A program made the translations under genes and the position numbers. 64,000 nucleotides of DNA from an uncultured Gammaproteobacteria bacterium (GTDB lineage Bacteria > Patescibacteriota > Microgenomatia > Levybacterales > UBA12049): contig CAZSWA010000005.1 of NCBI GenBank assembly GCA_964610465.1, positions 8,456 to 72,455 on the forward strand. Reading direction: 5' to 3'. Each line of letters opens with the position of its first letter. The stretch's first letter is position 1. Below are positions 753 to 11,790 of this stretch, piece by piece. The notes beneath the pieces are model-generated. The model was not told the DNA's origin, searched no databases, and worked only from the letters and a program-made list of their open reading frames with translations.

Positions 753-3700
753 ATGTTAGGTAGCCTATTTAATCAAAAGAAAAATCCTTCACAACCGCAA
801 GGGGACACGCAACAAATGTCTCCTAATGGGCAACCATATGGACAAAATTCTCAACAATTTGAGAACAATCAATATGCAAATCAGCAATATCAAAATCAAC
901 AGTACCCAAATCAACCGTATCCAAACCAAAACCCACAATATATGCCACAACAAATGCAACCAATGCCAATGCAACAGCAGTCTATGCCAGGGAATAATCC
1001 TCAGACAAATGTAATTAGCTCAAGAATGAACCCTGTGATGCGGCAGAATTTATCTGCATTATCTCATCTTGATACACGTACTACTCAGGCACTTACTCAT
1101 GCACAGGAGGAGACAAGAAGAATTCGTCAGCAATTTATTGAACCTGAACAGCTTTTGTATGGATTATTGTATGATCAGCAAGTATTCAAACTTCTTGAAG
1201 ATTTTAATGTCGATGTGGCCAAACTTTCAAAAGAACTCCAAACCAAAGAGAGAATTGGAACCTTTATGGGGCAGCCGACTCTTAGCAAGACATCACAAGA
1301 AGTATTTGAACAAGCATACAGAGATACTAAAATGAGAGGACAAAGTTTTGTTGTTCCTGAGGATGTATTAGTAACTCTTTTTAACATTAATTTGACTACG
1401 GCAAGTTATCTTCAAGCACAAGGAGTGAAAAAAGAGCAAGTAGTTGAAAAACTTTCCAAAACAATATCTGCGACATACGGCAAAAAAAGCGCACTTGATA
1501 AATATGGTACTGATCTTACAGAACAGGCACGTCAAGGGAAACTTGATCCAGTTGCAGGACGGGATAAAGAACTTGATAGATTGATTCATATTTTACTTCG
1601 TAGAACTAAAAATAATCCTATTATTATAGGGGAGCCGGGAGTTGGGAAAACTGCAATAGTTGAAGGACTTGCAGAAAAGATAGTTTCAGGAAGTGTCCCA
1701 AAGGAGCTTCAGGATAAAAGAATTTTTCAGCTGGATATTTCTGCATTAGTTGCAGGAGCAAGCCATAGAGGTGAGTTTGAAGAGAGACTGAAAGAAGTAA
1801 TTACTGATACACTGGCATCAGCAGGGCACACGATTCTTTTTATTGATGAGATACATACAATTATTGGTACAGGTGACAATGAAGGCTCACTTGACGCATC
1901 AAATATTATAAAACCATATTTAGCCCGGGGACAATTGCAAATTATTGGTGCTACTACAACAACAGAATTTAGAAAGAAATTTGAGAAGGATAAAGCATTT
2001 GAGAGACGTTTCCAGTCAGTACAAGCTGATGAACCGAGTGAAGAGAGCGCAATTGAGATGCTGAAAATTTTAAAACCAAAATATGAAATATTTCATAAAG
2101 TAACTTTTCCAGATGATACCTTAGAGGCAGCAGTAAAACTTTCCAAAAAATATGTCGGAGAGAGATTTTTGCCAGATAAAGCAGTAGATCTTCTTGATGA
2201 AGCAGCATCAGAAGTAAAGCTACAAATCGCAGCTGGAAAACGGCAGGATAACGTAGTGAAAAAAACAGATATCGAAACAGTAGTTAGTACCTGGACTGGA
2301 ATTCCAATTACCAAGTTGACAGAGGATGAAAGTGAAAAGCTCTTACGTCTTGAAGAGCGTATTCACAAACGTCTTGTCGATCAGGAAGAAGCATGCGTTG
2401 CAGTGGCAGAAGCAGTAAGAAGAGGACGTATTGGGCTTGCCAGTGCCAATAGGCCAATTGCTTCTTTTGTGTTCTTAGGTCCGACAGGTGTGGGGAAAAC
2501 AGAACTTGCCAAGACGCTTGCTGAAATACTTTTTGGGAGAGATGATGCAATGGTGAGACTTGATATGAGTGAGTACATGGAGAAACATGAAGTGGCAAAA
2601 CTTATTGGAGCGCCTCCTGGATATGTGGGGTATGAAGAAGGAGGACAATTAACAGAGGCTGTACGGAAAAAACCCTATTCTATTGTACTACTTGATGAAA
2701 TAGAAAAAGCCCACCCTGATGTATTTAATCTTTTGTTGCAGTTATTAGAGGATGGGAGACTGACTGATAATAAAGGGAATACTATCTCGTTTAAAAATAC
2801 TATTGTAATTTGTACTTCTAATATCGGAAGTGCACTTATCCAACAAAGATTAAGCCTTGAAGATCCAAAAATCAAGAAAACTCCTGAGGAATATAATAAA
2901 ACTTTTAAAGAGCTTAACGATGTAGTCAAAGAAGAACTTATCAAATTTTTCAGACCAGAGCTTCTTAATCGTTTTGATGAGGTAGTTATTTTTAAACCTC
3001 TACGGCTTGAACATATGTATGGTATTGCCAAGTTTAGTATCAAAAAAACTGCAGGACTTCTTAAAGAACAAGGGTTTGATTTACAAATTACCGATAAAGC
3101 AATTGAAAAGTTGGCAAAAGATGGCTATGACCCTGTATATGGAGCACGTCCTTTACGTCGTCTTGTGCAAACTGCAGTAGAAAATCCTATCGCCCTTGAA
3201 ATTATTTCCAAGAAATTCGCAGTGGGTGATACTATTGTTATAGATTACGACGAGAATACCAACCAATTTATATTTTCAAAGCCCAACGAAGGGAAAGTAG
3301 CAGCAACAGAAAAATATGATGCACTCGTATATCGCACTGCATTCCGGAGAATAGCAAGTCCTATGGATGTGCAAAATCCAGCTGAGCACAAAATGCTCAC
3401 TGAGCTTCATGATAAACTTATGGCACAAAGTCAACAAAATAATCAAATTGCAGCAGCTATCCTTGCAATTACAGAGATGACCTCAGATGGTGATGTATTG
3501 CGGATGAAACAACAGCTTGAGCAAACAAAAGAACAAGGTGACCCGTTGGCAACAGAAATTCTTCAAACAGTTGAGCAAACAATCATCATGGAAGAATTGT
3601 GGAATCTCAAAGTAGTACTTATGCAGATGATAAATCCTTTGACTGTCTCGAAAGAAAATAAAGAAACGTACACAAAACTACATGATACCGTATTACAGTT

Positions 3701-4130
3701 GAGCCAACAAGGGAATCCACTTGCAGGCGTATTACTTGCTATCAATGAAACAACTCCAGATGCAGATTTACAAAATATAAAACAGCAATTAGAGGAAGCA
3801 AAAGATCAAGGAGATACTACTGCTATTACAATTTTAACTTTAGCAAATCCTTTCCATGATCCAAACGTCAAAGTATCACAACAAGAACAAGCTTCACAAA
3901 ATAATCAAAATCCCCAACCAGTACCACAACAAATGCAACCAATGCCTTCTGACCAAACATATCCTTTTGGTTTGGGTCAGCAAGATGCAAATGCTCCTGA
4001 AACGCCATCTCAAGGTGATATAAGACAACAAATGCCTTTTGATGAAAATAATCAGACAAACCAGCCAATACAAAATGGTATGGCAAATATTTCCTCTTCA
4101 AATGGTATGATGCAATCGGGAAATAATTAG
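753..4130 (+). CDS. Clp/Hsp100-family AAA+ unfoldase with two NBDs. NBD2 is ClpB-like ([11 protein letters not shown]). The M-domain is deleted and there is no ClpP-binding [ILV]G[FL] loop. It has an N-terminal Q/N/Y/P-rich prion-like region, a Clp_N-like region, and a C-terminal extension with two ~60-aa repeats and a Q/N-rich tail. Most pipelines would annotate it as ClpC/ClpB.
   Basis: NBD1 Walker A GEPGVGKT and Walker [13 protein letters not shown]2 Walker A GPTGVGKT, Walker [11 protein letters not shown] and sensor-2 GARPLRR. Only ~14 aa lie between [11 protein letters not shown] and TWTGIP, where ClpB carries the ~120-aa M-domain. N-terminus: [33 protein letters not shown]. Confidence 0.85.
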
Positions 4131-4190: not shown

Positions 4191-5924
4191 ATGGAAGAGG
4201 TGAAAGAGAAAACAACTCCAGCGGAAAAATTCTTTTGGCTGTATTTTAAAAATAATAGAAAAGAAATTTCTCTAGGTGTTTTACTTCTATTTATATTGCT
4301 GTTTTTCATTCTTATCTTTTTTAGTAGAATACATAAGAAATCAACAAGTATTCCTGCACAACCAATACCAACACCTGCACAGACTTCAGAGAAAGTGCCA
4401 GGACAAATTTTGGTTAAATTCAAACGTGCAGTACCCGAGGCAGTTATAGCAGAACACTTACAAGTATATAACGCATCTGTTTCAGGAACGATTAAGGATA
4501 TTGGAGTAAGTATAGTACAGGTACCAAAAGGGCAAGAAGATGCTATACTTACTGCGCTTTCACATGATGCAATTGTTCAATATGTGGAAGCGGATTATTA
4601 TTCCCATGCATTCGCATTTCCAAATGATCCCTATTTCTCAAATCAGTGGGGACTTCATAATACTGCACAAGCCATACAAGGAAAAACAGGAGCATCAAAT
4701 GATGACATTCATGCAGTTGATGCATGGAATGTGACACAAGGTGATGGAATAAAAGTTGCGATTCTTGATACAGGTATTAATCAAAATCATCCTGACTTAG
4801 CATCAAAAATTGTACTACAAAAAATATTTTATACGAATTCTCTTGAAGATAACTTTGGACATGGAACGCATGTTGCCGGTATTATCTCAGCAGTAACCAA
4901 TAATTCTCAAGGAGTTGCAGGTGTTTGTCCAAATTGCCAGCTTATGATTGGGAGAGTATTGGATGATAATGGTAGCGGGCCAACTTCAAATATCGCCACA
5001 GGAGTAACATGGGCTGCAGACAATGGCGCCAAAGTCATCAATATTAGTGCTGGAGATACTGTTTTTGTACAAGCACTTGCAGATGCAATAACATATGCGT
5101 GGAATAAAGGCGTAGTAATTACCGCTGCAGCAGGTAATTCGAACACAACACAAAAATTTTATCCTGCTGCCTATCCTAATGTGATAGCAGTTGCCGCAAC
5201 CGATAATAATGATACAAAAGCGTCTTTTTCAAACTATGGAAGTTGGGTATTAGTAGCTGCTCCTGGAAGTAATATCTTTTCAACTCTTCCTGATCATACA
5301 TATAATATGCAAAAAATGAGCACTCTCAATTTAAATTATGATTATCTTTCTGGTACTTCAATGGCAAGTCCATTTGTTGCAGGTGCTGCTGCATTAGTTT
5401 GGGCATCGCCGTATGGCACATCAAATACAGCAGTCGTACAAAGACTTGAGAATACCGCAGATAAGATAACAGGAACTGGTACCTACTGGAAATATGGACG
5501 AATAAATGTGGCAAATGCAGTAGGTTTTAGTGTAACTACACCAACTGTACAGCCTTTAACTCCACCAACGTCTACTCCTACTCAACAACCAAAACAAACA
5601 ATTGCACCAACTATTCCTCATGTAACACCAACTCCTACCTTGCCTTTTGCAACTCCTACTTTTTATTGCGCTGGGGGAGTAAATTGCCTACCATCAACTA
5701 TTCCATCTCCTACTGTTCCAGTTATCCAAAATACTCCTCGCCCAACTCAAGTTTTTCAAAACGGAACTCCTACTTCAGTGATTACATTTGGAGTACCTAC
5801 TAATGTTCCAGGTATTTTAGGAGGAAGAAATCATGGTGGAAACAATAATAACTTCCAGCGACTTCGAAACTTTCTTATGCAGCTTGTTAAGCTACTCTTA
5901 AAAATGCTTTTTCCATTCTTCTAA
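4191..5924 (+). CDS. Subtilisin-like serine protease (peptidase S8) with an N-terminal TM anchor, an I9-like propeptide and a C-terminal P/T-rich region.
   Basis: Catalytic triad motifs: D (ILDTGI), H (HGTHVAGII), S (GTSMASPFVAGAAALV). Hydrophobic helix LGVLLLFILLFFILIFF near the N-terminus. P/T-rich linker TPPTSTPTQQPKQTIAPTIP. Confidence 0.85.
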   Translation: MEEVKEKTTPAEKFFWLYFKNNRKEISLGVLLLFILLFFILIFFSRIHKKSTSIPAQPIPTPAQTSEKVPGQILVKFKRAVPEAVIAEHLQVYNASVSGTIKDIGVSIVQVPKGQEDAILTALSHDAIVQYVEADYYSHAFAFPNDPYFSNQWGLHNTAQAIQGKTGASNDDIHAVDAWNVTQGDGIKVAILDTGINQNHPDLASKIVLQKIFYTNSLEDNFGHGTHVAGIISAVTNNSQGVAGVCPNCQLMIGRVLDDNGSGPTSNIATGVTWAADNGAKVINISAGDTVFVQALADAITYAWNKGVVITAAAGNSNTTQKFYPAAYPNVIAVAATDNNDTKASFSNYGSWVLVAAPGSNIFSTLPDHTYNMQKMSTLNLNYDYLSGTSMASPFVAGAAALVWASPYGTSNTAVVQRLENTADKITGTGTYWKYGRINVANAVGFSVTTPTVQPLTPPTSTPTQQPKQTIAPTIPHVTPTPTLPFATPTFYCAGGVNCLPSTIPSPTVPVIQNTPRPTQVFQNGTPTSVITFGVPTNVPGILGGRNHGGNNNNFQRLRNFLMQLVKLLLKMLFPFF

Positions 5925-5987
5925 GAACAACCTTATTTGTAATTTATATTTAAACTTTCTATACTAAAACTATACTCAAAAAAAATT

Positions 5988-6326
5988 ATGAGAGAATATA
6001 TGTTACTTCCTGGAGCATTTTTAAAATTTTGGTTTATTGAAGCGCCTTTGATAATGATAAAGTTTTTCGTATCTCTTAATCAAGCATTTTTCCAATTATT
6101 TTCCTTGTCATTATTTTTAAAAACTTTTTTTAAACCTCTTAAGAATGAATATCGGCCTGGTTTAGTACGGTTTTCAATTATCATGGGCATTGTAGTAAAA
6201 ACTGTATTTATTCTAGTTGACTTACTTTTATTTTCTTTATTACTTAGTGTTGAGCTAATAAGCCTCATTGTGTTTCTCATTTTCCCATTCGTATCTTTGA
6301 TTTTATTGATAATGCCAAACATATGA
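5988..6326 (+). CDS. Small, very hydrophobic predicted membrane protein. It could be an independent gene or the frameshifted N-terminal part of the downstream Clp paralogue.
   Basis: ORF of 112 aa made almost entirely of hydrophobic stretches (LIVFLIFPFVSLILLIM). It ends 4 nt into the next ORF, in a different frame. Confidence 0.3.
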   Translation: MREYMLLPGAFLKFWFIEAPLIMIKFFVSLNQAFFQLFSLSLFLKTFFKPLKNEYRPGLVRFSIIMGIVVKTVFILVDLLLFSLLLSVELISLIVFLIFPFVSLILLIMPNI

Positions 6327-8719
6327 TCACGTATGCCAGACTCTATCATTTCTACCGCACTGCAACACTCCGCAGTATAAGGCTATTAGTATTCTTTCTT
6401 TTACTTTTTGTAATAGTCAATGTAATATCAAGAGGTTTATTTCCTCGGTTTCCTCTTTTTTTGTTAAACCTTTTTATTATGAGTGAAATTTTTTTTCGTT
6501 TTAAAATCGCGCGAACTACACCATATATAAAAGTAACTGCGAATAAAGGAGAAAATCCGCTCATTTCTTTTAGTATGAATGCTCTTTATACGTACTTAGT
6601 GAATCAAAAGTCGTCATCCATTATTGCAAAGCTTATGAGTAATTCTCAAGTTCGTGCAATATTTGAGAAAGCAAATATTCAGGAGAAAGAGTTGTCTCTT
6701 CTTGACTATGAAAAAAATCTACTGGCAAAGACGGCATTTGATGTGGCAAGAAATAGAAATGGCCAATTTGTAACTACAATGGATTTGATAACTGCGTATC
6801 TTCTTGATACAGAAGGACAAACAAAACTACTCTTTAATAAGAAACTCAAGTCAGAAGAATTATATGCTATTTTGCATTGGGCAAGCAAGAATTTTCCTGA
6901 TGAAGAAATGCCCAAGCAGATAGCAATCCATTTATATGGTTCAGGAATTGGTGAATTTCTCACCACCGGATGGACTCCTGAAACAGAGAAATATACTCGT
7001 GAAGCAATATCAGGAGAAAAACCTCTTCTTATTGGCCGTGAAGGAGAATTTAAATCTCTTACTGATACATTATTGAAACCTGAAAACAACAATGTGTTAT
7101 TAGTAGGTGAACAAGGAGTTGGAAAAGAGACACTTGTACAAGCGCTTGCATATTATAGCATTGATAATGCTCTCTCTGCAAAATTAAATGATAAAAAAAT
7201 ACTCGAATTTCTCGTTGGACCATTTATTGCAGGCGCAAAGGAGAGAGGCGAATTGGAAGAACGATTACAGGCAATACTTGCTGAGCTTTCTCATTCAGGA
7301 CAGGTCATTATCTATATTCCTGAATTTCAAAATATTATTGGTGCATCGTCTTACAATCTTGATATTTCAGGAGCACTGCTTCCTTATCTTCATGATGGCA
7401 ATGTGCTTATTATTGCTACTATGACAAACGGGAATTACAAGAATTACATGGAGAAAAATCCCTTAAAGGAAGTATTTGGCATAATTGAATTGAGAGAACC
7501 TGATACACATACTGCATTACAAATGGTGTTTGAAAAAGCATCTGAGATAGAAAAGAAAACAGGTGTTATCCTGAGTTATCGCGCACTCGTTGCTGCAGTT
7601 GAATTTGCCAACCGCTACTTTCAGGATACTGTACTTCCAGGCAGTGCAATCTCACTTCTTGAAGATGTAGCAGCTAGTACTGCAGTATCAGGCAGCAGTC
7701 AGTATGGGAGTTCTCATCGAAAAATCGTTTTGGAGGAAGATGTCACTCGTAAAATAGAAGAGAAAATGCATGTCGCTATTTCAGCTCCTACTGGACAGGA
7801 AAAAGACTTACTCCTTCATCTAGAAGACAAATTACATGAACGGGTTATTGATCAAGTGGATGCAATTACTGCAATAGCAGAAGCAATGCGAAGAGTACGT
7901 TCCGGTATGATAACCTCAACACGGCCCATTTCATTTCTTTTCTTAGGTCCAACAGGTGTTGGGAAAACTGAAACTGCAAAGGCTTTGGCTGATTTATATT
8001 ATGGAGGAGAAAAAAATATGCTACGGCTTGATATGAGTGAATATGGAGACGAAGAGGGAGTAAAAAGACTTTTGGGTGCTGCACCTGGTGAAGGACGAGA
8101 ACGGGGAGAATTAACCGACAAAATTGCTGATAATCCTTCTTCTTTGGTGCTTCTTGATGAATTTGAAAAAGCACACCCTAAGATACTTGATCTTTTTTTA
8201 CAAGTTCTAGAAGATGGAAGACTTACTGATAATAAAGGACGAACAGTATCATTTATCAATACTATTATTATTGCAACATCCAATGCTGGAGCAGAATTCA
8301 TAAGAGAAGAAATCGAGAAGGGAACGCCAATTGATAAAAATTTCCAGCATAGGCTTTTTGAATATATACAATCCAAACTTATCTTCAAACCTGAACTTCT
8401 CAATAGATTTGATGATGTAGTTACTTTCAAGCCCTTGGGTGAAACAGAAGTCACACAAATAGTAAAACTTATGCTCAATAGCATCAGTAAAGCATTATAT
8501 GAACAGGATATTGATGTCGTATTTACTGACAAAGTTATTGCCAAAATTGCCAAAGAAGGATCTGATAAGGAATTTGGCGCTCGACCTCTTAGGCGTTATA
8601 TTCAGGATACAATCGAAGACGTATTGGCAAAGAAGAAACTTGCAGAAGAAATAAAGAGAGGAAACAGAGTATCTCTGACAACTGATGAAAATAATAACTT
8701 ACAGGTAGTTATTAGCTAA
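6323..8719 (+). CDS. Second Clp/Hsp100-family ATPase paralogue with a hydrophobic, possibly membrane-anchoring N-terminus and a Clp_N-like region. NBD1 is degenerate: Walker A is GEQGVGKET and the Walker B DE is replaced (IIYIPEF). NBD2 is intact. There is no M-domain and no ClpP loop.
   Basis: NBD2 Walker [17 protein letters not shown], Walker B LVLLDEFEKAHP, GARPLRR. The NBD1 motifs can be aligned by eye against ORF 753..4130 ([11 protein letters not shown] vs GEQGVGKETLV; ILFIDEIHT vs IIYIPEFQN). Confidence 0.8.
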   Translation: MITYARLYHFYRTATLRSIRLLVFFLLLFVIVNVISRGLFPRFPLFLLNLFIMSEIFFRFKIARTTPYIKVTANKGENPLISFSMNALYTYLVNQKSSSIIAKLMSNSQVRAIFEKANIQEKELSLLDYEKNLLAKTAFDVARNRNGQFVTTMDLITAYLLDTEGQTKLLFNKKLKSEELYAILHWASKNFPDEEMPKQIAIHLYGSGIGEFLTTGWTPETEKYTREAISGEKPLLIGREGEFKSLTDTLLKPENNNVLLVGEQGVGKETLVQALAYYSIDNALSAKLNDKKILEFLVGPFIAGAKERGELEERLQAILAELSHSGQVIIYIPEFQNIIGASSYNLDISGALLPYLHDGNVLIIATMTNGNYKNYMEKNPLKEVFGIIELREPDTHTALQMVFEKASEIEKKTGVILSYRALVAAVEFANRYFQDTVLPGSAISLLEDVAASTAVSGSSQYGSSHRKIVLEEDVTRKIEEKMHVAISAPTGQEKDLLLHLEDKLHERVIDQVDAITAIAEAMRRVRSGMITSTRPISFLFLGPTGVGKTETAKALADLYYGGEKNMLRLDMSEYGDEEGVKRLLGAAPGEGRERGELTDKIADNPSSLVLLDEFEKAHPKILDLFLQVLEDGRLTDNKGRTVSFINTIIIATSNAGAEFIREEIEKGTPIDKNFQHRLFEYIQSKLIFKPELLNRFDDVVTFKPLGETEVTQIVKLMLNSISKALYEQDIDVVFTDKVIAKIAKEGSDKEFGARPLRRYIQDTIEDVLAKKKLAEEIKRGNRVSLTTDENNNLQVVIS

Positions 8720-8769: not shown

Positions 8770-11700
8770 ATGAAAATAAGGAAAATTTTGCTTTTCATTA
8801 TCATAAGTTCTGTTCTCTTGTTTGTTTCAGAAATTTTTTCCCCTTCACAAGTAGTAGCACAAACGATAACCCCGACATCTACTTCCAGTTCAACATATAC
8901 TATAACAGGAAATTTTTTCTACGATACTAATGGAGATTTAAAGAAAGATAATGGAGAGGTGAATACGAACTATATAGATGTAGCCGGATGTAATAATGGA
9001 ACTCTTTCCTATACTACTCCAGGACAATACAGGATAAGTATAATAGGCGGAGGAACGTGTACCATCAATTACGGAAGTATTACATCGCCACCTGCCGGGT
9101 ATCAGATTACTTATCCTTCCGGAAATCCTCATAGTTTTACGGTAACTATTGGTTCTACCTGTAACGTGGATGGAACAACAGGAGGAACATGTAGTGGAGG
9201 AAATATCAGTAATCTTAATATTCCTCTTGGTGCTACTGCTGCACCTACGCTAACACCTACTCCTACATCAGTTCCCGCTACCTATAAAATTTCAGGTACT
9301 GTATTTGTGGATGCAAATAATGATGGAAAATTGGATAATGGAGAAAGTCCCTACAAAGCAAGCACTATTACTATTTCTCTTTCCGGTCCTGTAAATACAT
9401 TTACTACGACCGCAAATGGTGCATATACCTTCTCAAATTTACCTATAGGAACCTATACGCTAACTATGACGGTACCGGCAGGATATAATACAACTTCTGT
9501 TAATCCAGCAACAGTAACGGTGAACGCTAATGCAACGCAAAATTTTGGAGTTAGTAGTAATGTATGTACTGCGGGTAGTGGAGCTTCCGAGGTTATGCTT
9601 ATGTTTGATCATTCACAAAGTATGGCAGATAAAGACCCTGCAACAGGCAATACTAAAATAAGTGAAGCAATAAAAGCAGCACAAACATTTCTTAATCTGC
9701 TCAATCAAAATAATCCTGGGGTAAAAGTAGGTCTTATTGAATTTGCTGCCGCAGATAACTACCCCAATCTTGCTGATACCTCGGTTGTTGTGCCTCTCAT
9801 TCAACTCTCGAGTAACTATTCAAATCTTTCTAATGCTGTGAATCAAATGAAGATTGCATCAACACAGGGTACCTGTTTTGACTGTGCGGTTGATCTTCTC
9901 AACAAAGAACTGAAAGCCAATAGCACTCCCTCTGCAAAACATTTAGCAATTCTTCTCACAGACGGGAAGGCGAATGAAGATATTGCAAATGGTACCAATA
10001 ATGTCGATCCTACCACTGCAGAAAACGCTGCTATGAATTTAGTCAATTATGGTGATAATAATTTAAACATAGATTATTATACTGTTGGGGTTGGGAATGG
10101 GAATAATATCGACCCTGCATTTCTTCAGCAGATTGCAAACTCAACCGGTGGTCAATACTTTAACGATCCAACCAATGGTGATTTAACTTCTATTTACACA
10201 CAAATTGCCGGTAAACTAAATACTGCAGCAATTAAAGGTATGGTATATAAAGATGCCAATAATGATGGCAAGTACGACACAGGTGATACTCCACTGCAAG
10301 GATGGACAGTGCAAAATACTGGACCTTCAGGTAAGCAAACAGCAACAAGTGATAACAATGGCAAATTTTCATTTGGCAATCTCTGTATTGGACAATATAC
10401 TACTCAGGAGACTCTTCAGTCCGGGTGGATACAAACCCAACCGCAAAATCCCAATTTCTGGACTACGCTAGTAACGAGCGGAAATTCATTTAATAATATC
10501 AATTTTGGAAATTTACAAGGATATACTGTTTTAGGAAGTGTATTTGTAGATGTAAATAAAAATACTACTAAAGATAGTGGAGAACCAAATTACACAGGAT
10601 TACCTATACAGATTAACACGAGTGCTCCAGGAGCAACTGTGAGTTACCCAAGTCCTGGTACATTTAAAATAAGCGGAATAACTACAATTAGTGCACCAAT
10701 TAGTGTACAGTTTACAAACGCTTCTACAATACTGAATACAGGGTACCAAATGATTTACCCGTTAGGTACGCCTCCAGCTTTTTCTGTTACTGTAGGTCCG
10801 TCATGTAATATCAAGAGTGTATCAAACGGAGCACAATGTGACGCATCAGGCAATATCTCAAATCTCAATTTTGCTATCAGTAATTCATATCCTTGGATGC
10901 AATCTTCTGATTTAAATATCCGTGATGATTTCGGATTTAGTGACAATATCTCTTCTACTTCTTTGTGCACCGATTATACCTCAAAACCTGATGCATCATC
11001 AGCGAATCCCGGATATCCAGGAATAATTTTTTCTGGGCAAGTAAATGCGTTCTTCTGGCAGGGCAAGGCATCAAAAAAAAATTGGATAGTGGGAAGTTCA
11101 CTTTACCCTGAGGTATTCCAGAGTAGCAGTAATTTAAAAACAGAATACGATTATTTGCTCTCTACTATTAAGAATTCTGGAGCAACTATTACTGATTTTA
11201 CTGCGATTACTGATGCAAGTGGGAATCATACATGTAATAATCTTTCGAATTGTTCATTACCACCTAATCTGGCTCCAGGAGTGTATCAGGCATCAGGAGA
11301 TGTAATACTTACCGGGAGTGGGAGTCCTGTAGCCTATACGTTTTCTGCCAATAACGGACACTATATATTTCTCGTCAATGGAAACATAACGATAAAGGAA
11401 CGAATTGTTACCCCCAATGGGACCAATGCAATATTTTCATCGGCTGGTAATATTATCATTGATAAAACAGTTGGTGCTTCAAGTTTAACTTGCAATGATT
11501 CTCCGGGAGAAATTCAAGGAATTTATAGTGCTGATAACCAATTTATTGTCGATGGCTATCATGATTGTGTTACTCCTCAAGTTGATAGTATATTGACGAT
11601 TGAAGGAACAGTTATTGCCAACGCTGCAAGACAAAATACCCAAGAATCATTCATCTTTAACAATAGAGACTTGTGTGGTAATGACCCAAGTTATCCTGTT

Positions 11701-11790
11701 GTTTTCTTACGAGCTCGTCCTGACTTTATTCTTTCTGCACCTGATGTGGTAAAACAAAATACATTTGTTACACAAGAAGCCTTGCCATAG
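8770..11790 (+). CDS. Large secreted surface protein (~1000 aa). It has a signal peptide, three SdrD-B/Cna-B-like repeat units and a von Willebrand factor A domain with a MIDAS motif.
   Basis: N-terminus MKIRKILLFIIISSVLLFVSEIFSPSQVVAQ. Repeats GTVFVDANNDGKLDNGE, GMVYKDANNDGKYDTGD and GSVFVDVNKNTTKDSGE. vWA DxSxS motif (MFDHSQSM) and LLTDGKANED. Confidence 0.75.
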   Translation: MKIRKILLFIIISSVLLFVSEIFSPSQVVAQTITPTSTSSSTYTITGNFFYDTNGDLKKDNGEVNTNYIDVAGCNNGTLSYTTPGQYRISIIGGGTCTINYGSITSPPAGYQITYPSGNPHSFTVTIGSTCNVDGTTGGTCSGGNISNLNIPLGATAAPTLTPTPTSVPATYKISGTVFVDANNDGKLDNGESPYKASTITISLSGPVNTFTTTANGAYTFSNLPIGTYTLTMTVPAGYNTTSVNPATVTVNANATQNFGVSSNVCTAGSGASEVMLMFDHSQSMADKDPATGNTKISEAIKAAQTFLNLLNQNNPGVKVGLIEFAAADNYPNLADTSVVVPLIQLSSNYSNLSNAVNQMKIASTQGTCFDCAVDLLNKELKANSTPSAKHLAILLTDGKANEDIANGTNNVDPTTAENAAMNLVNYGDNNLNIDYYTVGVGNGNNIDPAFLQQIANSTGGQYFNDPTNGDLTSIYTQIAGKLNTAAIKGMVYKDANNDGKYDTGDTPLQGWTVQNTGPSGKQTATSDNNGKFSFGNLCIGQYTTQETLQSGWIQTQPQNPNFWTTLVTSGNSFNNINFGNLQGYTVLGSVFVDVNKNTTKDSGEPNYTGLPIQINTSAPGATVSYPSPGTFKISGITTISAPISVQFTNASTILNTGYQMIYPLGTPPAFSVTVGPSCNIKSVSNGAQCDASGNISNLNFAISNSYPWMQSSDLNIRDDFGFSDNISSTSLCTDYTSKPDASSANPGYPGIIFSGQVNAFFWQGKASKKNWIVGSSLYPEVFQSSSNLKTEYDYLLSTIKNSGATITDFTAITDASGNHTCNNLSNCSLPPNLAPGVYQASGDVILTGSGSPVAYTFSANNGHYIFLVNGNITIKERIVTPNGTNAIFSSAGNIIIDKTVGASSLTCNDSPGEIQGIYSADNQFIVDGYHDCVTPQVDSILTIEGTVIANAARQNTQESFIFNNRDLCGNDPSYPVVFLRARPDFILSAPDVVKQNTFVTQEALP

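Follow-up and report, generated by a model that had tools for sequence, protein, structure and literature searches.

Does the Clp-like locus at positions 5988 to 8719 of this DNA hold one broken gene or two intact ones, and what could its product do at the membrane? We analyzed a 64,000-nucleotide stretch of contig CAZSWA010000005.1 (assembly GCA_964610465.1), here called the window, in which a short open reading frame (ORF) for a hydrophobic protein runs directly into a gene for a relative of the Clp/Hsp100 ATPases. In the textbook view, Clp/Hsp100 proteins are soluble machines whose substrates are threaded through a pore at their center. A preliminary description of the locus had left three alternatives: a membrane protein paired with an ATPase, a single gene with a real or sequencing frameshift, or a programmed frameshift site. 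We are highly confident that there are two real genes, that the ATPase carries a membrane anchor and a fixed, degenerate first nucleotide-binding domain (NBD1), and that no frameshift is involved. The best overall explanation, which we regard as probable, is that the pair forms a conserved operon, widespread in the Candidate Phyla Radiation (CPR), for a membrane-anchored, half-dead ClpC derivative and a small membrane partner, which would carry out remodeling driven by the second nucleotide-binding domain (NBD2).

The 798-aa protein encoded by the second gene contains two tandem AAA+ modules, a Clp-type lid and a C-terminal D2-small domain, which places it among class I Clp/Hsp100 proteins (Pfam matches: AAA_2, 4.9e-49; ClpB_D2-small, 6.9e-23; AAA_lid_9, 3.5e-9). 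Its best relatives of solved structure are ClpC of B. subtilis, S. aureus and M. tuberculosis, and ClpB (5.7e-113 for the ClpC structures), and it shares 39% identity with the product of a canonical ClpC-like gene 2 kb upstream (753..4130). An AlphaFold 2 (AF2) model built from 99 family sequences has a mean predicted local distance difference test (pLDDT) score of 84.6 and matches the ClpC double-ring core in Foldseek (E 5.9e-52; target-normalised TM-score ~0.87); we did not see the long coiled-coil M-domain in this model. The protein scores far below the whole-protein cut-offs of the NCBIfam models for ClpB (462 vs 1232), ClpA (404 vs 993), TssH (372 vs 885), ClpK (389 vs 1900) and ClpG (374 vs 1900). 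Pfam likewise finds no Peptidase_M41 domain, and a Clp-type double ring is present instead. Among the 120 listed relatives, orthologs are mostly ~802 aa long and 55-62% identical to the window protein.

We read the state of each catalytic motif from an ungapped alignment with the neighboring ClpC and from an alignment of 121 sequences (the window protein and 120 database relatives), and compared more distant CPR members separately from these Levybacteria-type sequences. In the NBD1 Walker A motif, 120 of the 121 family members have Glu where the Mg2+-binding Ser/Thr should be, as do 17 of 18 more distant CPR members. The Ser/Thr had been described as displaced; its loss stands, but because GEQGVGKET aligns with GEPGVGKTA of ClpC without a gap, we read the change as a Thr-to-Glu substitution and not as a displaced Thr. 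The residue after Glu269 is Asn in 109 of the 121 sequences, and more distant CPR relatives have GKET. In Walker B, Asp has become Pro in 120/121 (hhYIP[DE]). The second member of the acidic pair, also reported as lost, is kept: IIYIPE aligns with ILFIDE, and this position holds Asp in 62 sequences, Glu in 53 and Gln in 6 (acidic in 115/121). Two further losses add to what had been noticed in the window. The NBD1 arginine fingers are replaced by K-E-[VA]-F (KEVF in the window protein) where the neighboring ClpC has E-R-R-F, with no Arg in these columns across the aligned family, and the position of the pore-loop Tyr is occupied by Asn, Asp, Ser, Thr or Glu, the Tyr being lost in more distant CPR members as well. 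Arg308 is invariant in the family. The suspected inactivation of the first ATPase module is supported, and it extends to the whole family. Chance alone would not come near to such consistency: the features are fixed in the 121 aligned sequences and are found again in more distant CPR lineages.

Mean pairwise identity ranks NBD1 (large domain, 0.67) as the second most conserved domain after NBD2 (0.78); the value is 0.59 for the linker that precedes it and 0.46-0.48 for the N-terminal parts. Since Glu269 and Pro333 are each fixed and NBD1 is second only to NBD2 in identity, we interpret its altered site as selected design rather than decay. Judged by its pattern of sequence conservation, NBD1 is under strong purifying selection.

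NBD2 had been called canonical, which holds for its catalytic site: all or nearly all of the 121 sequences keep Walker A, Walker B, sensor-1, the arginine finger (LLNRFD) and sensor-2 unchanged, and Arg695 of the finger is present in every one. The term does not fit pore loop 2, GAAPGEGRERGE, which is 2 residues shorter than the canonical loop (aligned form PGEG--RERGE) and lacks the GYVG tyrosine. None of the 121 sequences has an aromatic residue at the pore-loop position of NBD1 or NBD2, and neither do the more distant CPR members, whose NBD2 loop is even shorter (GSPDG----xxxG). We also found, beyond the earlier observations, that the [ILV]G[FL] tripeptide that docks ClpP is absent from the window protein and from all aligned CPR members; the segment aligned to KYVGFNV of B. 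subtilis ClpC reads IEKGTPI in the 798-aa protein, with GTP in place of VGF. A search for ClpP with the E. coli protein as query found no ClpP gene in the window or the fetched loci, a result that covers 64 kb plus flanks only and is uninformative.

The strongly hydrophobic N-terminus, which had suggested a membrane anchor, is a feature of the whole family. Hydropathy averaged over the family indicates hydrophobic helices at residues ~20-35 and 44-58, and the AF2 model contains a hairpin of two helices (14-36 and 42-62) at pLDDT 90-96. Conserved basic residues flank the hydrophobic helices (R12, R17 and R20 before helix 1, K61 and R64 after helix 2), and the loop between the helices is short and weakly charged, with one conserved basic position. 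Orthologs keep the region and begin at the same Met1. For the topology check proposed earlier, hydropathy and the distribution of Lys and Arg predict an N-in/C-in arrangement with the ATPase in the cytoplasm. One public gene call (P0001, 746 aa) begins at Met53, which removes the hairpin (window 6323..6478; 6830..6985 in L001 and L002).

The helical domain that follows the hairpin, residues 79-190, has no match to Pfam Clp_N even at E 10. A single hhalign comparison with the ClpC N-domains of the same genomes aligned it weakly to one Clp_N-type repeat (E 0.004, probability 8%, 56 columns), and it may be a diverged Clp_N domain. The linker between this domain and NBD1 is the better conserved of the two (mean pairwise identity 0.59 vs 0.48). 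Within it E194, G208, W217, T218 and E220 are invariant and E195, G206, G210 and T221 nearly so, and its family-specific motif remains recognizable in more distant CPR members as GG[IF]G..W..G[WY]T.

The gene for the small hydrophobic protein lies directly upstream of the Clp paralog in all 57 comparable Levybacteria-type loci, with 39-62% identity by tblastn; identity to the proteins at more distant CPR loci is weak (18-29%). Its own sense frame is the only reading frame that stays open in all 28 loci examined. In assembly L002 an antisense ORF of 89 aa (window 6080..6349, - strand) was called in its place, and this antisense frame is closed in 27 of the 28 loci. We conclude that 5988..6326 is a real conserved gene. 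Database searches returned 343 relatives, the best 120 of which, as listed, are stand-alone proteins of 99-167 aa, none of them Clp-sized; where the source gives any name, it is 'hypothetical protein'. The protein matches no Pfam, NCBIfam or PADLOC family and no fold in the PDB. An exhaustive profile search of 1.84 billion representatives with the small-protein alignment found 61 sequences, and all credible matches were at most 152 aa long. We rejected P0282 (423 aa) as a candidate fusion, its match being repetitive and spurious. A profile limited to Levybacteria sequences was too narrow to reach the partners of Parcubacteria type.

We modeled the small protein with AF2 from 105 sequences and obtained a confident structure (mean pLDDT 94.4) with a helix at residues 2-38 extended by 40-45, a loop at 46-58 and a 50-residue hydrophobic helix at 59-108. 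The loop is basic and carries the motif TFFKPLKNEYRxG..FS; residues 46-63, the most conserved stretch, include the invariant positions T46, P50, K52, N53, E54, Y55, R56, G58, L59, F62 and S63. Because the loop is rich in Lys and Arg, the positive-inside rule predicts that it faces the cytoplasm, where it could be the contact site for the ATPase.

To map the distribution of the pair, we scanned a genome collection with two family-specific peptide patterns and obtained 79 loci, almost all from CPR/Patescibacteria. Beyond Levybacteria, the pair and its NBD1 changes occur in records labeled Woykebacteria, Portnoybacteria, Saccharibacteria, Parcubacteria, Liptonbacteria and Paceibacter. In these more distant loci a ~115-aa hydrophobic protein with FFxPLYxDY..GR at the equivalent loop is encoded immediately upstream, often overlapping the ATPase gene by 4, 17 or 20 nt. 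The ATPase is ~840 aa long and has the N-terminal hairpin, an NBD1 with GKET and YIPD[IV] and no arginine fingers, and an intact NBD2. One locus labeled Woykebacteria (L063, 2773..5229) combines the partner gene and the hairpin with a canonical NBD1 Walker A (GEPGIGKTT) and a Walker B of FIPN, and its NBD2 pore loop has a Tyr two positions off the usual place (PPGSSEYEAGGQ). This member may represent an intermediate state in evolution.

The preliminary description had proposed looking for a single fused membrane-Clp protein among orthologs. We found none among the comparable Levybacteria-type loci, but such fusions exist in more distant lineages. In a Portnoybacteria-labeled locus (L065, 7272..9740), an 822-aa protein matches the Parcubacteria partner over residues 1-124 (2e-14) and continues with the family linker and a GKET NBD1. 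Two metagenome proteins, P0300 and P0301, are 28-31% identical to this fusion and cover its whole fused N-terminus. Their Walker A motifs read GKYT and GKKT, and Walker B is likewise degenerate across the three (VINN, VISE and VVRD). In these proteins the partner domain seems to have taken over anchoring from the hairpin of the ATPase. Since natural fusions occur in some lineages, we take the partner and the ATPase to act as one unit; fusions in other lineages support a physical partnership, and not a frameshift in the window.

Table 1 Features of the partner and membrane-Clp genes (window positions).
Feature	Positions	Strand	Basis
Weak sigma-70-like promoter matches TTGTAA-17-TATACT and TTTAAA-16-TATACT (9/12 positions)	5937..5976	+	63-nt gap upstream of small gene
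Small membrane protein gene (partner), 112 aa	5988..6326	+	synteny, 343 relatives, open frame, AF2
Most conserved stretch of small protein, residues 46-63	6123..6176	+	105-sequence alignment
ATGA overlap, Clp start codon on small-gene stop codon	6323..6326	+	sequence (cat-ATGA-tca), different frames
Membrane-anchored Clp/Hsp100 paralog gene, 798 aa	6323..8719	+	Pfam, PDB, AF2, orthologs
N-terminal membrane hairpin (helix 14-36, short loop, helix 42-62)	6362..6508	+	hydropathy, Lys/Arg, AF2
Helical N-domain, residues 79-190, possibly diverged Clp_N	6557..6892	+	AF2, about eight short helices
Conserved linker N-domain to NBD1, EE.PK...G.GIGE...GWTPET.KY	6893..7027	+	family alignment
NBD1 (large domain and lid), catalytically degenerate	7028..7702	+	motif states in 121 sequences
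NBD1 Walker A GEQGVGKET, Glu269 at Ser/Thr position	7106..7132	+	alignment
NBD1 pore-loop-1 region AGAKERGELE (canonical AGxKYRGEFE), without Tyr	7229..7258	+	alignment
NBD1 Walker B VIIYIPEF, Pro333 at Asp position	7304..7327	+	alignment
NBD2 large domain, intact ATPase site	7823..8434	+	Pfam AAA_2 4.9e-49, motifs, identity 0.78
NBD2 pore loop GAAPGEGRERGE, shortened, charged, no aromatic residue	8075..8110	+	alignment with canonical loop
NBD2 small (D2-small) domain with sensor-2 GARPLRR	8435..8716	+	Pfam ClpB_D2-small 6.9e-23

We compared the pair with known systems. The ATPase shares with ClpC, ClpA and ClpB its two AAA+ modules, the AAA_lid_9 and ClpB_D2-small domains, and identical NBD2 catalytic motifs. 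It differs from them in its transmembrane (TM) hairpin, its altered NBD1 site, the lack of a pore Tyr in either ring, the lack of a ClpP-docking loop or long M-domain, and its obligate small membrane-protein neighbor. FtsH and Msp1/ATAD1, AAA+ proteins that extract other proteins, likewise have an N-terminal TM anchor that holds their ring against the cytoplasmic side of the membrane. Msp1 has a single module; FtsH, with two N-terminal TM helices, joins a single AAA module to an M41 zinc-protease domain. Both rely on aromatic pore loops; the window protein has neither the M41 domain nor the aromatic loops. In NSF and PEX1/PEX6, too, one of two stacked rings (D2 and D1, respectively) no longer hydrolyzes ATP and contributes to assembly or structure, leaving the other as motor, much as we propose here. 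These are soluble members of the classical AAA clade whose active ring retains its pore-loop aromatics.

The closest parallel in working principle is with the Torsins of the eukaryotic ER and nuclear envelope, which are Clp/Hsp100-related AAA+ proteins without aromatic pore loops, are attached to the membrane by an N-terminal hydrophobic region, and are controlled by the membrane cofactors LAP1 and LULL1; threading by Torsins has been judged unlikely (PMC5425593). The window protein resembles them in its lack of aromatic pore loops and in its N-terminal hydrophobic membrane association. In contrast to the two modules of the window protein and its own Arg695, a Torsin has a single AAA+ module and obtains its arginine finger from the cofactor. 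Torsin cofactors have a degenerate AAA+ fold, whereas the partner here is a 112-aa two-helix protein without one. We therefore treat the resemblance as an analogy in working principle only and claim no membership by sequence.

We tentatively propose a specific mechanism that does not involve threading. The ATPase would assemble, like ClpC, into a hexamer that sits on the cytoplasmic side of the membrane, with NBD1 as a non-hydrolyzing structural or nucleotide-sensing ring, like D2 of NSF, and NBD2 as the only motor. NBD1 should be unable to hydrolyze ATP normally, with the Mg2+ ligand, the Walker B Asp and the arginines that act in trans all missing; its strong constraint suggests that its role is most likely in assembly or nucleotide sensing. 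Threading by known Hsp100 proteins depends on aromatic pore-loop residues. Because the window protein has no aromatic pore loops, because its NBD2 loop is shortened and varies between clades, and because it has no ClpP-docking loop, threading and delivery to a protease are unlikely, and the machine would neither thread polypeptides processively nor feed a protease. The N-linker and the hairpin would instead carry ATP-driven movements to the small partner or to a membrane complex that includes it, with the conserved cytoplasmic loop of the partner as the point of contact with the ATPase. The overall outcome may be a Torsin-like remodeling or assembly switch at the membrane. A fuller version of this scheme, which we offer as a possibility less likely to be right in all its parts, is a CPR-wide membrane machine: a Torsin-like, non-threading ClpC descendant in which NBD2 drives the partner, possibly in a 6:6 ring with ~24 TM helices, and whose task, particular to these ultra-small bacteria that depend on hosts, might concern, for example, membrane proteins, acquired lipids, or a surface or attachment apparatus.

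Several points weigh against this scheme. Loss of the pore Tyr is not proof that threading does not occur, as other residues could grip a substrate, and one that is charged or is not a protein could be handled by the invariant Arg308 together with the charged NBD2 loop. NBD2 has its own arginine finger, unlike Torsin, so the partner need not complete an active site. The 50-residue helix 59-108 of the partner exceeds the thickness of the bilayer, which makes the topology of the small protein uncertain. L063 keeps a canonical GKT in NBD1, and NBD1 inactivation may therefore be graded across the clade. Finally, we infer rather than observe the hexamer, nucleotide binding by NBD1, and contact between the two proteins.

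The main rival to remodeling without threading is a dislocase or quality-control unfoldase of Msp1/FtsH style that threads with unconventional pore residues, drawing membrane or secretory proteins from the bilayer through its central channel, with the partner as adaptor or pore, and that may hand substrates to ClpP or to the neighboring ClpC; we consider it unlikely. In its favor, the double-ring fold is ClpC-like, NBD2 is a complete motor, and the N-terminal side, where Hsp100 substrates enter, faces the membrane. A hexamer of hairpin and partner, with its ~24 membrane helices, could form a pore, and most Levybacteria loci have canonical clpC in synteny a few kb upstream. Against it, neither pore loop has an aromatic residue, and the NBD2 loop is 2-4 residues short and not conserved between CPR clades, which suggests that it is not used for grip. 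The missing [ILV]G[FL] docking loop for ClpP also counts against it, as does, weakly, the failure to find a ClpP gene in the window and fetched loci.

A motor for non-protein cargo at or across the membrane, for instance in the uptake of nucleic acids or lipids, with a charged pore and the partner as channel, appears improbable. CPR bacteria depend on uptake of nucleic acids or lipids, and the family is CPR-restricted in the records returned. Charged residues stand in for the aromatics of the pore loops (the invariant Arg308 and the E/R-rich NBD2 loop), and in 10 loci labeled Parcubacteria or Saccharibacteria a gene for half a major facilitator superfamily (MFS) protein directly adjoins the ATPase gene at its 3' end. 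Outside the Levybacteria clade, however, the charged NBD2 loop gives way to GSPDG----xxxG; Pfam detected no nucleic-acid- or lipid-binding domain; the neighborhood links are to housekeeping genes only; and the proposal is purely speculative.

That the two ORFs are a single gene for a ~910-aa membrane-Clp fusion, split by sequencing error, frameshift mutation or programmed frameshifting, is very improbable. The observation behind this idea is correct: the two ORFs overlap by 4 nt in different frames, and fused small-protein-Clp proteins do exist in more distant CPR lineages. The window junction is nevertheless identical in two independent assemblies from different sequencing runs, and the ~802-aa orthologs begin at the same Met, so that a frameshift, whether real or from sequencing, is unsupported. 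Across the 57 junctions we found a stop codon between the ORFs in every case, with intergenic distances of -4 (ATGA) in 15, +1 (TAATATG) in 11, +2 in 9, and others from -19 to +125 nt, among them -1, +3 and +7; L001, L002 and the window count as one sequence among the -4 overlaps. The three possible relative frames occur 34, 17 and 6 times. Two loci that looked like read-through fusions, L005 and L018, were rejected because each has an in-frame TAA through which tblastn had aligned. We found no slippery heptamer, Rfam element or repeat at the window junction, and since the gaps vary and all three relative frames occur there is no conserved shift site, which leaves the suggestion of programmed frameshifting equally unsupported. 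The short length of the small-protein relatives also argues against a split gene. Of the original alternatives it is the pairing of a membrane protein with an ATPase that proved right, on the strength of synteny, stand-alone relatives and the open sense frame, and the ATGA overlap is an ordinary signature of translational coupling. Least probable of all is a decaying or functionless clpC duplicate next to a spurious hydrophobic ORF in AT-rich DNA (GC ~0.32-0.38), an idea to which the several broken NBD1 motifs and public gene calls that omit the small ORF or shorten the Clp gene lend some color, but which is contradicted by ORFs intact in all comparable loci and across divergent CPR lineages, by the fixation of the replacement residues themselves, by an NBD1 more conserved than every domain but NBD2, by a small ORF whose sense frame alone stays open, and by confident AF2 models of both proteins.

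The ATPase is clearly a Clp/Hsp100 derivative, yet it fails several defining functional features of that group and has gained an anchor and an obligate partner. We found no curated family, solved structure or paper for the pair, or for a membrane-anchored or CPR-specific Clp paralog; TM7x transcriptome papers mention only generic clp genes, and a paper on protein families enriched in CPR mentions neither Clp nor AAA. A whole clade has been rebuilt, and kept across much of the CPR, with an anchor, a dead first ring, no gripping tyrosines, and an adjacent or fused partner. Should the fuller scheme of a CPR-wide machine hold, this protein would be the first Hsp100 known to be integrated into the membrane, and also the first shown to function with no aromatic residues in its pore loops. 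Study of the clade could reveal by what route a double-ring AAA+ motor turns into a membrane-coupled device that does not thread, a bacterial counterpart to the poorly understood Torsin system, and could supply a function for one of the numerous membrane proteins that are specific to CPR and have no assigned role. Public annotation gives the ATPase as 'ATP-dependent Clp protease ATP-binding subunit', with the anchor sometimes cut off and the partner gene sometimes missed; genome-based inferences about proteolysis in these organisms may be wrong as a result.

In Levybacteria the gene order is canonical clpC, a variable insert, the partner, the membrane Clp, a second variable insert, and nusA-infB-DHH-rpsO-pnp. 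The proximity of the membrane Clp to clpC suggests that it may have arisen by clpC duplication. Neighbors at Parcubacteria-type loci are a uracil-DNA glycosylase-like gene, the half-MFS gene, an apparent PolX-type DNA polymerase, and apparent infC and rplT; the half-MFS gene alone was checked against Pfam, and the others were identified by reading the sequences. These neighborhoods are housekeeping regions, not mobile or defense islands. A role in anti-phage defense was considered and rejected: PADLOC returned only generic AAA_2 matches, the partner was unmatched, and the synteny is with housekeeping genes. The ATPase does share the ClpB-type AAA_2 module with DolB of the anti-phage system Dodola (125 bits, residues 474-774), but the likeness is limited to the generic NBD2. 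Between the small gene and the Clp gene we found no terminator-like site. Promoter-like matches in the region number 29 against a shuffled expectation of 19.2 +/- 4.1, a modest excess of what are consensus matches only.

The half-MFS protein (~220 aa, PF07690, ~6 TM helices) is absent from the window. Its gene overlaps or abuts the membrane-Clp gene ~2.5 kb downstream of the Clp start in L066, L067, L070, L071, L074-L076, L078, L079 and L081, and in those lineages it may belong to the module as a third component. The upstream insert in the window (4191..5924, +) encodes an S8 subtilase that has a TM helix at its N-terminus, a prodomain like that of fervidolysin and a C-terminal region rich in Pro and Thr. 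The downstream insert (8770..11790, +) encodes a protein of 1006 aa that carries a signal peptide, domains of SdrD-B/SpaA type and a von Willebrand factor A (vWA) domain. Both flanking genes, which are for surface or secreted proteins, vary between lineages, and each occurs in a minority of orthologous loci. The canonical ClpC-like protein itself (753..4130, +; 1125 aa) has a Q/N-rich N-terminal tail of ~100 aa and a C-terminal extension of ~290 aa with a ~70-aa internal repeat, ending Q/N-rich. Its NBD1 pore loop has His for the canonical Tyr in 28 of 29 Levybacteria orthologs; its NBD2 pore loop is the canonical GYVGY, and an [ILV]G[FL] ClpP loop is not visible in the alignment.

Many contigs that bear the Levybacteria-type locus, with nusA-infB ~80% identical, have been deposited under unrelated names, among them 'uncultured Gammaproteobacteria', 'Lysobacterales', 'Acidiferrales', 'Methylomirabilota' and 'Sulfotelmatobacter'. 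They include L005-L007, L012, L014, L018, L035, L061, L064 and others, and look like mislabeled or mis-binned contigs of metagenome-assembled genomes.

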